Source: a virus (Duplodnaviria > Heunggongvirae > Uroviricota > Caudoviricetes). From it: 33,438 nt of DNA. Position numbers: made by a program. Within the stretch, counting starts at the first letter, position 1. Every line of letters begins with the position of its first letter. Positions 1 through 9,000 of the stretch are shown one piece after another. The stretch spans positions 1-33,438 of the IMG/VR virus record IMGVR_UViG_2531839440_000004, one strand, 5' to 3'.

Positions 1-3000
1 CTACGATAACCGCGCATTCAACATGGCTATCTGTTCGTCGTTCATGTCATCAATCCACATACCGTAAATTTCATACACCATCTGCGCAGTTTCATGCCCC
101 ATTTGGCTGGCTATAAATGCCGGGTTCGCTCCTGCCGTCAACAGCCAGCAGGCAAAAGTATGCCGCGTATGGTACGGATTACGGCGGCGAATACCAGCAC
201 GTTTTACTGCTGCATTCCACCTTGCCCCCAAACTGCTTACCGAGTAATAAGGTTTTTGTTTTCCGTTACACACCCTGGGCATGAAAACAAAATGCAGTTT
301 TTGCTTTTCGGTTCTGCCGTACTCCCGATGATAAAAGGTGATTTCGCTTTTGCGATGATGCCCGGTCAGTTTGTATTGCTCCTTCAGTGCTTCAAGAGCA
401 GGCTGCAGTAGTGTTACTGTTCGGATCCCGGCATTTGTTTTTGGGGGACCGAACATATCAAGTATCGTCAGGTTTCTTCTGACATTCACTATTCCCTTTT
501 CGAGATCCACATCCTCCCACGCCAGAGCTGCCAGTTCCCCGTGACGAAGTCCTGAGTAAACGGCAAATTTCCACAAGTTCTGGCTCTGTCCTTTTTCACT
601 TTCCATTAATGCATTGAATTCTGTTTTAGATAACGGATCAGGCTTTATTCTGTTTCGCTGTAATTTTTTTACTCCTTCAAATGGTTTGGTTGATATAAAT
701 CCCGACTGATACGCAAAACGTAACAGCGAACAGAGCAGGGCGATATAGTTATCAACTGTGCGTACGGTTCTTCCTTTTTTGTTGGATCTTGGATTATCCA
801 TGTAAAGCGTTTCTCCATGCAGCAGTTCATTCCGGTAATTTAAGATATCGCTATAACGAATATGTGATATCGGGGTACTTTCACAAATTATTATTCTGAG
901 TGTTTTTAATTGTGATTTCGTTTTCTTCATTGTGTTTGTTGTTAACTCTGTCTCTTTAATTTTTGTCCAGATATCACAAAGCTCCCCGAACGTTTTTATG
1001 ACTCTCGTTGTCACCATTTTTGCCCCAGTGCTGGACTGGGGAAAACGTCTTAAATACTCAAATTCACCGGAGTTTATTTCATGAACTATCAGCGCTCTTA
1101 AATTTCCGGCCTTTTTAATATTACTGTTTGTAATCTCCCAGCCTTTTAATGTTTCCCGACATCGTTTTCCTCGAAACATGAACCAGATGCGAATGTATCT
1201 ACCTCTAATCTCGACACCTGTTGGTAATTTAGACATATCATGATTCTTTGATAAACTGATTTATCTTTGGATAGTTGTACCAGATAATTCCTCGTTTGCT
1301 GTCTGGCTTACCTAAAGGAGATACTCGTTTGAAGTGGAAGCCCTCCACCCAACAGTTCTGGCGGTATGCTTCAATTTGTCTGGCCCCCAGACCAGTGCGA
1401 AGCATCAGGCCGTATTCAACCATCCACTCTTCATTAAAGATTACTTGTGCCATCGCATCACCTCTGGCAGGCGCCAATGTTAGACTGAAATTGACGCCCG
1501 ATGTTGATTATTAATAATCAGCTATGAAGTTTTAATTTGAATACAATGCAACTCACGAGGACTGAAGTTTCTCGCAATTAAAATTAATCAGTTTTACTTT
1601 CTGCTCTCTGGAAACGCCTGCTTCTTTTTTACCTGAGAGCATTTTTTCGCATTCTGATTTCGTTAGTTTAGATTTTGAATATCTTGTCCAGTTAGTAGGA
1701 GTGCCACCTTCCTTTTCAATAGTGGCGGTAATTTTATACATGAACATCTCCATTATTATTTCCAGTGGTTCGTTTATTCCATCTTTCGAGTGCTTCTTTT
1801 TCACTTCCACCATAACCGGTTCGGGATTCGCATGCGTTACACTTCGCTCGGTAATATCCTGAAATGGCTTTCACCGTTACTGATGGACAACCACAAAATG
1901 GACATGGTTTGACTTTTTCATACCGCATTGTCTTTTCTCTCATATGATAAAATTTTGTGATGGCGGTGAGGCTACACCGCCAAAGTCAATATTAGGATCC
2001 GATATATTCTGGTTTCATATCTGTCAGTGTCGTTTTATACGCCTCATATAATTCACCCAGATGTGGTCGAGCAGCATTCAGCGTATTTTCCAGAGCAGTA
2101 AATTTTTGTTCTGCTTCTGGATCACCTGATGAAGGCAGGTCATTTATCATCTTCTCGATACTGGCAATAGCATTGAGACGGTGATGACGCCGAACCACTT
2201 TTCCTTTAAGCTCGGCAAAGAATTCGCCGATCTGGTTTTTCTGATCCTCTATCTCTTGGCGTAATGCAGTGGTTTCCTCAGTCGTGGCCGCGCTTTCGAC
2301 ACGCTGCCGGAATTCATCAATCCACGCTTCGTCAATACGCTGTTCGATGGTTTCTGTTCGCTGCTCGCTTACCTCTCTATAATTCTGTACCGGCACAGGA
2401 TTGATGATTTTTTCCTGTGGCTCTTCCAGTTCGTCCGGGGTATACACGCCCAGGATGACGTCAGGACAATAAAGGCGAGCCCAGTATTTCAACGCCAGAT
2501 AGGCGAGCTGTTGTTTCGGGTTTGAGGTCCATAAAGGAGAATTACGCGTAATCACGCTGGAAAGAAACACCGGTTCTCCCCAGGTAATCTCACTTTCACC
2601 GCGAAGAACTGCACCAACTCGAACGGATAGACCATACTCATCTTCACTGGTCCAACATGGGATCGTTTCTTTTTTCTCATAGATTCCGCCTCCTTTGGCC
2701 GTTTTCTTAACGGTCTCCACTCGGGTGCGAGAGCATTTCTCCCAGTCTCCCTCGTACTTGTAATGGAAGCGGCCTACAATTGCACTTGAGCTAGAGATCA
2801 CAGCGTTAACAAGTTGTGCTTCATAACCCAGAACTCCGTTTACCAGGTGTGTTTTCTGAGCCACAGCGTAGGGGTTCATGCCCCATTGCATGGCTTGCAT
2901 GATGATTGCCATGCAGTCGGCAGGTTTTCCGCGAAGGTGATCGGGAACTGTGACGGTGGCCTGTGACATCAACCCGGCTACTTCCTGAAGTTGCGTCAAC

Positions 3001-6000: not shown

Positions 6001-9000
6001 CCCAGGTGATGGAGTCCTTGCCGAGTTGATAGCGTTCACACCACGTAAAATCGATCTCACCTTCAGGGGGAAGGTCATTAACGACAGGAAAATTAGTTGC
6101 AACAGTTTTAAAATAGTTGCTCAGTTTTTTACCTGACTTAACGATCAGGTAGTCCAGAGTGGCACTGGTCGATTCAAAATCGTCGCTTGCCCACAGGACG
6201 ACGTCAGGTTCACCGGATGATTTTTTCGCTTTCCGTAAAAGGAAGAGTGGTTTTGTGCTCATTGTTTTTTAACCTCAACTCAGATTAAAATTACTGCGAG
6301 TGATGAATAAATGTCCCAGGTTCTTCACTCAGGCCTGCACACTGTGCAGGCTTTCTTTTTTTCAGATTTCACCGTTTAATTTCATTGCGATCAGAGTTGC
6401 CAGAAATCCAGCTTTTTTTTCTGCGGGCAGATTCTTTCCGATGTAAACCAGGCACATTTTTGTGACACCTTCATCAAGTGTTTTAACGTTGCCTGATGGA
6501 CCGTCGATATCAACCACAGTGAAAGGGGTTTCTTTATTTTCTGTTTTAATCACGTAGCCAATGCGCTTTCCTTCCAGATTCACCTCGTGAACAATGTCAT
6601 CGGTAGTTACAACAGTGGCTTCATAATTGGTAATCATGTTTTTCTCCTTAATTAAGGTTGAGCGAATCTCTACCATTTCTGGCATAAATTCAGTTTCGAA
6701 TAGTCAATTAATTAAAGTTCGTGTGCCATCTGGTCTTTTTCGGCACAGATTTCACTACAATATTTTTTCATTTCCGTCGTTGGTATAACTCCACGCATGA
6801 AATGAAGTGGTCTTGTAATGATTTTGCTTTCTTCAATTTCTTTATTGCAAAGGTGATAAGCACATTTTATTTTCTTAGTCATTACCATGACTCCGCCTTT
6901 ACAGGTAAACCATCACGACCGAGGAAGACTTTAATCATGCAGTCAGAAATGCATGTTTTTGTAGTCAGGCTACGAATATAAAGTTTTCGCTTTTTAATAT
7001 TGTTTGCCGAGGCGATATATGTCCGACCTTCATGAAGAACATAATCGCCAGGGGTCACACACTGACGTGGTATTTCATCAGTTCCGAAGTGATGAGCAAT
7101 CATAATTATCTCCATTTTTACAAATGAATTTTGTCGATGCGGTGCCTGGTGCCTCCAGGTGACGTTAACCAGTTAACAATTAACGCCGGATAATCCACCC
7201 ATAACACTGATGCTTTTAACTGCGCCGCGTGCGCTTAGCCGCATTCACCGCATCACAAAATTCACTTTAAAAAGGGGCGGCAGGGCAGCTACGGAGTAGA
7301 ACTGATGCCGCCAAAAACTAGACACAGCAATGTCGTTATTTACAACCGGAGGCGCACTCCCACCATTTAAATTTAACAGACAAGACCGACTCTTTATGGA
7401 TACCGGAAATGCGCCTTCGTATTGTGCCCGGTTTTATTTCACCACCTCCGGGCTTTGGTGGCCTCGGCTATACCCCTACAGCAAGAATATTGAATTAATC
7501 CAATAAATGGTTTAGCTGGTATTTTTGGCAAGCCAGCGACGTGCGCCAGCTTCGGTTTTAAACGATTTGCTTTTGGTATACGTCATGGCGGTGAATGTGC
7601 CGTCCTGATTGGGAAACACGCCACATACCCTGGAACGCCGTGCATTACTGGCGGCGCAGGAAGCGTTGAGTACGGCAATTGATGCGCATGATGATGCAGT
7701 CCAGGCCGTTTACCGGAAAGCACATTTCAGCGGTGGTGGTTCGTCCGGCGATTCTGTTGTTGTTCATTAAGGTGATGTGGTGGGTAATGACTCCAACTTA
7801 TTGATAGTGTTTTATGTTCAGATAATGCCCGATGACTTTGTCATGCAGCTCCACCGATTTTGAGAACGACAGCGACTTCCGTCCCAGCCGTGCCAGGTGC
7901 TGCCTCAGATTCAGGTTATGCCGCTCAATTCGCTGCGTATATCGCTTGCTGATTACGTGCAGCTTTCCCTTCAGGCGGGATTCATACAGCGGCCAGCCAT
8001 CCGTCATCCATATCACCACGTCAAAGGGTGACAGCAGGCTCATAAGACGCCCCAGCGTCGCCATAGTGCGTTCACCGAATACGTGCGCAACAACCGTCTT
8101 CCGGAGCCTGTCATACGCGTAAAACAGCCAGCGCTGGCGCGATTTAGCCCCGACATAGCCCCACTGTTCGTCCATTTCCGCGCAGACGATGACATCACTG
8201 CCCGGCTGTATGCGCGAGGTTACCGACTGCGGCCTGAGTTTTTTAAGTGACGTAAAATCGTGTTGAGGCCAACGCCCATAATGCGGGCAGTTGCCCGGCA
8301 TCCAACGCCATTCATGGCCATATCAATGATTTTCTGGTGCGTACCGGGTTGAGAAGCGGTGTAAGTGAACTGCAGTTGCCATGTTTTACGGCAGTGAGAG
8401 CAGAGATAGCGCTGATGTCCGGCGGTGCTTTTGCCGTTACGCACCACCCCGTCAGTAGCTGAACAGGAGGGACAGCTGATAGAAACAGAAGCCACTGGAG
8501 CACCTCAAAAACACCATCATACACTAAATCAGTAAGTTGGCAGCATCACCTATGAACTGAAAAAATACCGACTTAAAACACTGGAAGGCGAAACATTGCT
8601 TCAGCGTATAGCCCGAAATGTTGCCTGGTATGCCATACGACTCTCTCTGCATCGCCATCTTGTTAACGGGTATCCCTCGTCAACGCTGTTGTTCATCAAT
8701 ATCAAAGATAAAGAAAAAGCCGCAGAACACATTCGGTGGATGGAACTGGCGCAGGGACAAGCTCTTGATATTGAGTATGGCGATGAGATCGACTACAGCA
8801 AAGCTCAACTGCTGCGCCACGTAATTTTTAGGGGGTGATTATGACATCTTTTCTTTTAGCTTTTGTAGGGCAACGATCAGTTCATCAATTTGGGTTGCAT
8901 CCATTATCAACTCCAGTTTGTGATAAGCCCCGTAATTTAGCTCCTGTGTGGAATTCCTGGGCAAGTATTTTTACTCCTCCGCGATTGAGCATTCCTGAGG

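Follow-up and report, generated by a model that had tools for sequence, protein, structure and literature searches.

The leftward early block of a Rac-type prophage raises the question of whether the overlapping stop and start codons between its genes tie the whole block into a single unit of translation. The block lies on the minus strand of virus record IMGVR_UViG_2531839440_000004 (Caudoviricetes), whose 33,438 nucleotides (nt) are called the window. A preliminary description of this DNA had proposed a chain of overlapping start and stop codons through the early-left operon, and had concluded that the genes are translated as a coupled unit from one leftward transcript and are likely silent or active together. 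The analysis favors a different explanation, at a probability of about 0.8: the overlaps are ordinary compact junctions that link genes in pairs within the Rac leftward early block, with no continuous relay of ribosomes through it.

Eight junctions separate the nine genes from kilR to intR. Their distances, with overlaps given as negative values, are as follows:

kilR/ydaE, -1 nt
ydaE/racC-like, +74 nt
racC-like/recE, +99 nt
recE/recT, +14 nt (or -1 nt, if the longest open reading frame (ORF) is taken)
recT/ralR, +63 nt
ralR/ydaC, -8 nt
ydaC/xisR, +99 nt
xisR/intR, +1 nt

Four of the eight are gaps of 63–99 nt and the overlaps link pairs only, so that a chain through the operon is not borne out. 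In E. coli, the commonest distance between neighboring genes is -4, followed by -1 and then -8, and the range from -8 to +6 accounts for 24% of unidirectional pairs (PMC10666635). Coupling by termination and reinitiation has been shown in E. coli for junctions of -8 to +1 nt, while in reporters a spacer of +14 nt costs 40–80% of reinitiation and one of +38 nt almost abolishes it (PMC10666635). As reinitiation is abolished at +38 nt, a relay of ribosomes cannot cross gaps of 63–99 nt. The distances typical of coupled pairs, about -8 to +10 nt, are found at kilR/ydaE, ralR/ydaC and xisR/intR; recE/recT, at +14 nt, falls in a grey zone, and the other four lie at +63 to +99 nt.

The three tight junctions resemble known termination–reinitiation pairs (Huber et al. 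2019, PMC6728339; PMC10666635) in being co-directional, at -1, -8 and +1 nt, with the Shine–Dalgarno sequence (SD) inside the upstream gene. The likeness is one of geometry, and it does not extend to recE/recT, at a distance where coupling is gene-specific and reduced, or to the four junctions outside the class. Terminating ribosomes would reinitiate at the adjacent start codon, or open it, in passing from kilR to ydaE, from ralR to ydaC and from xisR to intR, and would do so less efficiently from recE to recT. Pairwise co-production is therefore expected to be strong at -8, -1 and +1 nt and weak or variable at +14 nt, while the genes that follow gaps of 63–99 nt (racC-like, recE, ralR and xisR) would be initiated independently. 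A recognizable SD of its own is present before each of racC-like, recE and xisR. In addition, each downstream gene of the tight pairs has its own GGAG and, as an SD stands at every one of these starts, coupling is probably not obligatory even there. The coupled translation proposed earlier thus stays plausible for three pairs of genes but not for the operon as a whole, given the gaps.

The number of overlaps is also unexceptional. In strain 214-4 of E. coli, whose sister prophage is annotated, overlaps of -1, -4, -8 or -11 nt are found at 11 of 29 junctions between same-strand genes: 2 of 10 among the leftward genes and 9 of 19 among the rightward ones. At p = 0.38, eight junctions would show at least three overlaps with a probability of 0.64, and overlaps in the early-left block are at background frequency. 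An enrichment of overlaps in this block was considered and ruled out, since 2–3 of its 8–10 junctions overlap, compared with 9 of 19 for the rightward operons.

By its sequence, the minus strand of window positions 1–7115 is the leftward early block of a lambdoid prophage of the Rac type, as found in E. coli. Positions 1–10000 are 99.7% identical to the chromosomal prophage of strain 214-4, for which RefSeq gives, on one strand, the order intR, xisR, a DUF1187 gene, ralR, a RecT-family recombinase, recE, a hypothetical gene, a YdaE-family gene and kilR. The block holds cell-division-inhibitor, recombination, toxin and excision genes:

6882..7103, minus strand: kilR, 73 amino acids (aa), FtsZ/cell-division inhibitor; 100% to the RefSeq "killing protein KilR" of 214-4 and 95% to K-12 KilR
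6712..6882, minus strand: ydaE, 56 aa, Cys-rich and zinc-ribbon-like; RefSeq "YdaE family protein", 73% to K-12 YdaE, weak zinc-finger Pfam matches
6362..6637, minus strand: racC-like, 91 aa; 96% to K-12 RacC, with its own AAGGAG after the 74-nt gap
3095..6262, minus strand: recE, 1055 aa, exonuclease VIII; Pfam Exonuc_VIII 1.7e-65 and a PDDEXK-like domain, RefSeq recE
1992..3080, minus strand: RecT-family annealase, 362 aa, not the K-12 RecT allele; Pfam RecT 1.6e-36
1734..1928, minus strand: ralR, 64 aa, Lar/RalR toxin; Pfam Lar_restr_allev 2.1e-14, 94% to K-12 RalR
1553..1741, minus strand: ydaC/rcbA-like, 62 aa, DUF1187; Pfam DUF1187 8.1e-39
1238..1453, minus strand: xisR, excisionase by RefSeq and Pfam
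1..1236, minus strand: intR, tyrosine integrase by RefSeq and Pfam

This arrangement, kilR-ydaE-racC-like-recE-recT-family-ralR-ydaC(rcbA)-xisR-intR, is collinear with the Rac cryptic prophage of K-12. The Rac-type order int-xis-ydaC-ralR-recT-recE-racC-ydaE-kilR is found on a single strand with homologous proteins, although RecT and the C-terminus of RecE are of an alternative allele. In both 214-4 and K-12 the ttcA gene adjoins intR; the window starts at the int stop codon and ttcA therefore lies outside it. The KilR, RacC, RalR, YdaC, Xis and Int proteins are 94–100% identical to those of K-12, and gene order, strand and the position of the RalA small RNA (sRNA) are the same. The K-12 Rac prophage differs in that YdaE of the window is only 73% identical to its counterpart, in that sieB is absent from the window copy, and in that the 3' part of recE and recT are of another allele here; a tblastn search with K-12 recT found no match in the window. 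The segment from recT through recE (1992..6262, minus strand) contains a module swap relative to K-12, comprising the recE 3' end and recT, and its relatives are spread across many genera of the Enterobacteriaceae.

The early-left (PL) operon of phage lambda, which consists of N, kil, cIII, gam, bet, exo, xis and int, is a comparable known system: it too is read leftward and carries a cell-division killer, an exonuclease/annealase pair and distal xis-int genes. The PL operon has several short overlaps, internal terminators that need read-through and a separate int promoter, traits that are likewise seen as shared with the Rac block. In contrast to lambda, RecE/RecT are non-homologous to Exo/Bet, no N-type antiterminator was identified in the window block, and the block adds a type I toxin–antitoxin pair and a DicF-like sRNA.

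Of the overlaps reported earlier, the TAATG between kilR and ydaE is confirmed: read on the minus strand, the kilR stop codon TAA occupies 6884..6882 and the ydaE ATG 6882..6880, an overlap of 1 nt.

6880..6884, minus strand: kilR/ydaE junction, TAATG, -1 nt overlap, from direct reading of the sequence

The ydaE ATG is preceded by GGAG 8 nt upstream, and the junction is also -1 in K-12 Rac, there as TGATG. The outer limit of the block had been placed too far out, since position 7115 is the longest-ORF ATG of kilR, whose annotated start is 7103. The context of the 7115 start is ATGGAGATAATTATG, in which ATGGAG contains the SD of the 7103 start; the start at 7115 is a longest-ORF artefact and the real one is 7103. 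Across 15 loci that have both genes, the -1 distance occurs only in two E. coli loci, ten have spacers of +8 to +11 nt with an SD, and in three the genes are fused in frame. The xis and int genes lie at -4 to +1 nt in 16 of 16 loci, with the 1-nt spacer of the window shared by K-12 Rac. The conserved trait is tightness and not overlap, a pattern consistent with co-transcribed pairs that benefit from coupling but reach it by interchangeable means.

At recE/recT, the 1-nt overlap reported earlier is literally present, with TAA at 3097..3095 and an in-frame ATG at 3095..3093, but it is probably not the real junction of the two genes.

3078..3097, minus strand: recE/recT junction TAATGGAGAACCTGACCATG, with the stop codon, the SD GGAG at 3093..3090, the 14-nt spacer and the conserved ATG at 3080

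The ATG at 3095 is the longest-ORF start of the RecT-family gene, and the RefSeq (PGAP) start is 3080, 14 nt past the recE stop. To compare RecT, 59 loci from other species that encode relatives were fetched, and the junction was compared in the 46 that also have recE. The conserved layout in these 46 consists of the recE stop, a purine-rich SD (GGGGAA, TGGAG or GGGAG) and an ATG about 10–14 nt after the stop, and an ATG that overlaps the stop is present in only 10. Sister loci L029 and L060, which belong to the closest subgroup, have TAAGGGAGG, without the overlapping ATG and with the same downstream ATG; their junction reads TAAGGGAGGATTTGACCATG and is otherwise unchanged relative to the window. 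The five extra codons of RecT vary freely across the loci except for GGAG. Spacers of +5 to +16 nt are found between recE and recT in nearly all loci, with an ATGA overlap in L046, and K-12 Rac differs from the window in having -8 nt where the window has +14. As the RecT ribosome-binding site, where the SD reads TGGAG, supplies the T of TAATG, the overlap is explained as a longest-ORF artefact. A literature search returned no paper stating that recE and recT are translationally coupled.

The 8-nt overlap of ralR and ydaC holds: the ydaC ATG lies at 1741..1739 and the ralR stop TAA at 1736..1734, so that the junction reads ATGTATAA. It coincides with one end of the RalA antitoxin sRNA, which is encoded on the other strand.

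1734..1741, minus strand: ralR/ydaC junction ATGTATAA, 8-nt overlap, also antisense of the RalA 3' U-tail
1557..1735, plus strand: RalA antitoxin sRNA, Rfam RF02694, full length, 223.8 bits against a gathering score of 170

A GGAG is present 6 nt upstream of the ydaC ATG. The -8 overlap is identical in K-12 Rac, and in L039, the only other locus with both genes, the distance is +11. RalA converges with the operon, runs antisense to nearly all of the ydaC ORF and reaches two bases into the stop codon of ralR, and the first ydaC codons ATGTATAAAA are also the complement of its 3' U-tail. A RalA opposite ydaC together with a Lar-family RalR constitutes a RalR/RalA type I toxin–antitoxin system, and the ralR and ydaC segments that carry the complementary repeat are identical to those of K-12. 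Over its ydaC part, any long leftward mRNA is perfectly complementary to RalA, which could, by inference, uncouple the distal genes. In K-12, YdaC protein escaped detection by Guo et al., who concluded that the gene is non-coding (PMC4041452).

Two alternatives concern what is joined at these last junctions. That RecT starts at 3095, with a genuine overlap and five extra residues (MENLT), is improbable. The ATG at 3095 is the first in-frame start of its ORF, and ten related loci retain an ATG at -1; however, no SD lies upstream of 3095 whereas GGAG stands 9 nt before the ATG at 3080, the closest relatives L029 and L060 carry TAAG in place of TAAT, the overlapping ATG is missing from 34 other loci, the extra codons are constrained in their GGAG only, and the PGAP start is 3080. 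It is likewise unlikely that ydaC is a spurious ORF, the mere antisense of RalA, in which case the overlap would not join two protein genes. This alternative draws on K-12, where YdaC was undetected and where start-codon and nonsense mutations had no effect on antitoxin activity (PMC4041452), and on the RalA span of 1557..1735, which covers the ydaC ORF almost exactly. Those experiments, however, addressed antitoxin function and not production of YdaC from the native mRNA. Against a spurious ORF stand the strong DUF1187 match (8.1e-39) and YdaC homologues at 63–67% aa identity in L039, L010 and L011, two of which have no ralR nearby and none of which has a RalA match at the Rfam threshold. Further, ydaC substitutions fall mainly at third codon positions in 6 of 6 pairwise comparisons (e.g. 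14/11/32, p = 0.001). The ralR/ydaC overlap is treated here as a junction of two genes, as these observations suggest, with some residual doubt.

The preliminary description also drew conclusions about transcription. Co-transcription of the block is plausible and is documented for K-12, but overlapping codons say nothing about a single transcript. Similarly, the proposed joint silence or activity of the genes holds approximately when they are derepressed through loss of Rho function, but it does not follow from the overlaps and does not apply to all genes. In K-12, PRM-racR is the origin of leftward transcription that can extend to kilR, and trac, a Rho/NusG-dependent terminator inside racR, halts it (PMC4150792); lowered NusG induces kilR (PMC5793797). 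The recET-lar-ydaCQ genes are listed as one operon (PMC3141248) and xisR responds to RpoS (PMC4632033). From these K-12 findings and the features described below, leftward transcription of the block would yield long transcripts, silenced under normal conditions. It would be punctuated at a DicF-like sRNA/terminator before kilR, at ydaC through convergent RalA, and at xisR, which would have a promoter region of its own.

A consensus scan of the minus strand for independent promoters found no sigma-70-like site between 7400 and 1535 and one promoter-like site before xisR (TTAAAA-17-AATAAT, 1535..1507), in the 99-nt gap. The scan of positions 1–9500 has weak power, with 11 promoters against 13.3 expected from shuffled sequences and 11 terminators against 11.6; the DicF terminator went undetected on account of its long loop. 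Besides RalA, the following RNA elements were noted:

7268..7326 (Rfam match 7275..7326), minus strand: DicF-family sRNA with intrinsic terminator, 54.6 bits against a gathering score of 48, full length 1–52
6331..6353: GC-rich hairpin in the 99-nt racC-recE gap, terminator-like on the plus strand only, followed by TCTTTTTTTC
1962..1981, minus strand: hairpin GGCGGTG-N6-CACCGCC in the 63-nt recT-ralR gap, fold z = -1.8

The DicF-like sRNA lies about 165 nt upstream of the kilR ATG and ends in a GC hairpin followed by CCUUUUU, and so combines a score above the family's gathering threshold with a 3' terminator hairpin. Its loop UUCUACUCCGU is close to the family consensus UUUUACUCCGU, and in keeping this DicF-type loop the window copy differs from its K-12 homologue KilS, which has diverged. 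KilS has its own transcription start and is visible on northern blots (PMC8175672). In L033 (Salmonella) and L039, too, DicF precedes kilR. The arrangement resembles dicF-dicB of the Qin prophage, in which a DicF-family sRNA with an intrinsic terminator directly precedes a same-strand protein inhibitor of cell division, with the difference that the downstream protein here is KilR and not DicB. In the 165-nt leader between this sRNA and kilR, a match to STnc100 (42.2 bits) fell just below the threshold of 47. Hairpins are present in both the racC-recE and recT-ralR gaps of K-12 Rac as well. The first is a strong hairpin whose terminator-like strand is opposite to that of the surrounding operon; its stem is kept in K-12 by a compensatory change, and it might terminate antisense transcription or protect a 3' end. 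The second is conserved in K-12 despite unrelated upstream recT alleles; it lies at the mosaic boundary and could act as a weak terminator or as a site of processing.

Set against these elements, an overlap chain that makes the whole early-left operon one coupled unit, turned on and off together on a single leftward transcript, is very improbable. Three tight junctions do result if the longest ORFs are used, no consensus sigma-70 site was found before ydaE, racC, recE, recT or ralR, and the K-12 Rac genes rise jointly under Rho inhibition (PMC4150792). These points are outweighed by the 63–99-nt gaps at four of eight junctions, where +38 nt already abolishes reinitiation (PMC10666635), by the lack of conservation of the recE/recT overlap, by the DicF-like terminator upstream of kilR and the convergent RalA within the block, and by the separate regulation of xisR in K-12 (PMC4632033). 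A more limited alternative, which is possible but doubtful, is that KilR and YdaE form a functional two-part unit, either physical or as modulator and effector, whose co-production is secured by the overlap. In its favor, in-frame KilR-YdaE fusions of 124 aa occur in Atlantibacter (L003, 2047..2421; L005, 2344..2718) and Phytobacter (L028, 2636..3010), kilR and ydaE are found at -1 to +11 nt in 15 of 15 loci having both, and subunits of complexes are enriched among overlapping pairs (PMC10666635). On the other side, plasmid-expressed KilR is toxic alone (PMC12482147), and a hidden Markov model search for KilR upstream of ydaE found it in 13 of 33 loci, with other small ORFs in its place in the remaining 20, which weakens the model of an obligate partner. 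An AlphaFold2 prediction of the natural fusion, from a five-sequence alignment, was too poor to judge an interface (pLDDT 54.5, pTM 0.48).

Several points also weigh against the favored explanation, that of compact pairwise junctions. If ydaC is non-coding, as Guo et al. concluded (PMC4041452), then its overlap with ralR would not be a gene junction, and the ATG at 3095 may still serve as a minor start of RecT. The promoter scan was not above shuffled expectation, and so says little for or against internal promoters. Lastly, the case for coupling and transcription draws on geometry and on K-12, which carries another allele of the recE 3' end and recT.

The fusion proteins belong to clusters P0001–P0005, which have up to 207 members and two Pfam domains, and no prior description of a KilR-YdaE fusion was found; literature searches gave nothing useful on the function of YdaE. 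The fusion hints that the -1 overlap serves the co-production of partners. Tentatively, KilR and YdaE may each supply half of a single functional unit in which a 1-nt overlap provides stoichiometric co-synthesis and YdaE would modulate the block of FtsZ/MreB by KilR. More broadly, ydaE might be a constant partner that is translated right behind interchangeable small "kil"-type ORFs.

As to what precedes ydaE elsewhere, in 20 of the 33 loci (among L004–L060, at about 2100–2800) it follows, at -11 to +10 nt, a small ORF other than KilR, which is either a 65-aa MNTLFALVLT... protein or a peptide of roughly 40 aa, MIDYARKP.... In these loci ydaE looks like a constant gene following interchangeable small genes. 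An isrB-family Hfq-binding RNA lies antisense and directly downstream of ydaE in L003 (2425..2503), L005 (2722..2806), L018 (2888..2982) and L028 (3007..3094); the window has no counterpart at threshold.

The sequence to the right of the block sets the window copy apart from that of 214-4. Relative to 214-4, 1371 bp are deleted between 5-bp ATACC repeats (window junction 7625..7629; compared with 8630..10000 of L001). Lost in this way are the N-terminal end of the DUF1391 gene, the cI-like repressor, the cro-like gene and the greater part of ydaT, which together make up the whole PRM/PR region. The window copy thus lacks a Rac-type immunity region, in which a leftward repressor gene stands beside a divergent cro-like/ydaT operon, and is a degraded copy and not a different family; K-12 Rac differs here as well, as the window has lost the racR-type immunity region and has gained an IS1.

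7783..8550, minus strand: IS1 located upstream of the leader of the operon, transposase read leftward

This is one of four IS1 copies in 33 kb, two per orientation (7783..8550, 12349..13116, 14563..15330 and 18349..19116), a density that suggests a Shigella-like or otherwise IS-rich host. The copy at 7783..8550 lacks a 9-bp target duplication and 9 bp of 214-4, ATGGAAAAA, are missing, which together suggest an IS1-mediated rearrangement. No complete E. coli genome in the collection covers at least 80% of positions 7400–8700, which hold the deletion-plus-IS1 structure. With the immunity region deleted, native leftward read-through of the PRM type is lost, and by analogy with K-12 the block in the window copy is probably silent, apart from a KilS-type promoter or read-out from IS1. 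In the late region there are, in addition, a sok antitoxin RNA of the hok/sok type I kind (16412..16583, plus strand) and two adjacent tRNA genes (19857..20007, plus strand); hokD is annotated in the sister prophage.

The overlaps, genes and elements described here are already annotated in K-12 or RefSeq, so that the finding itself is already known. Short stop/start overlaps are the commonest type of junction in bacterial and phage operons and carry little wider biological weight. What can be learned from this locus is that longest-ORF starts yield false overlaps, as an SD of TGGAG right after TAA mimics TAATG, and that overlaps point to pairwise coupling and not to operon-wide control. In the window copy, whether the toxic kilR and ralR genes can be expressed depends less on the overlaps than on the missing repressor/PRM region and the added IS1, and the KilR-YdaE fusion provides a cheap and testable lead to the function of YdaE.

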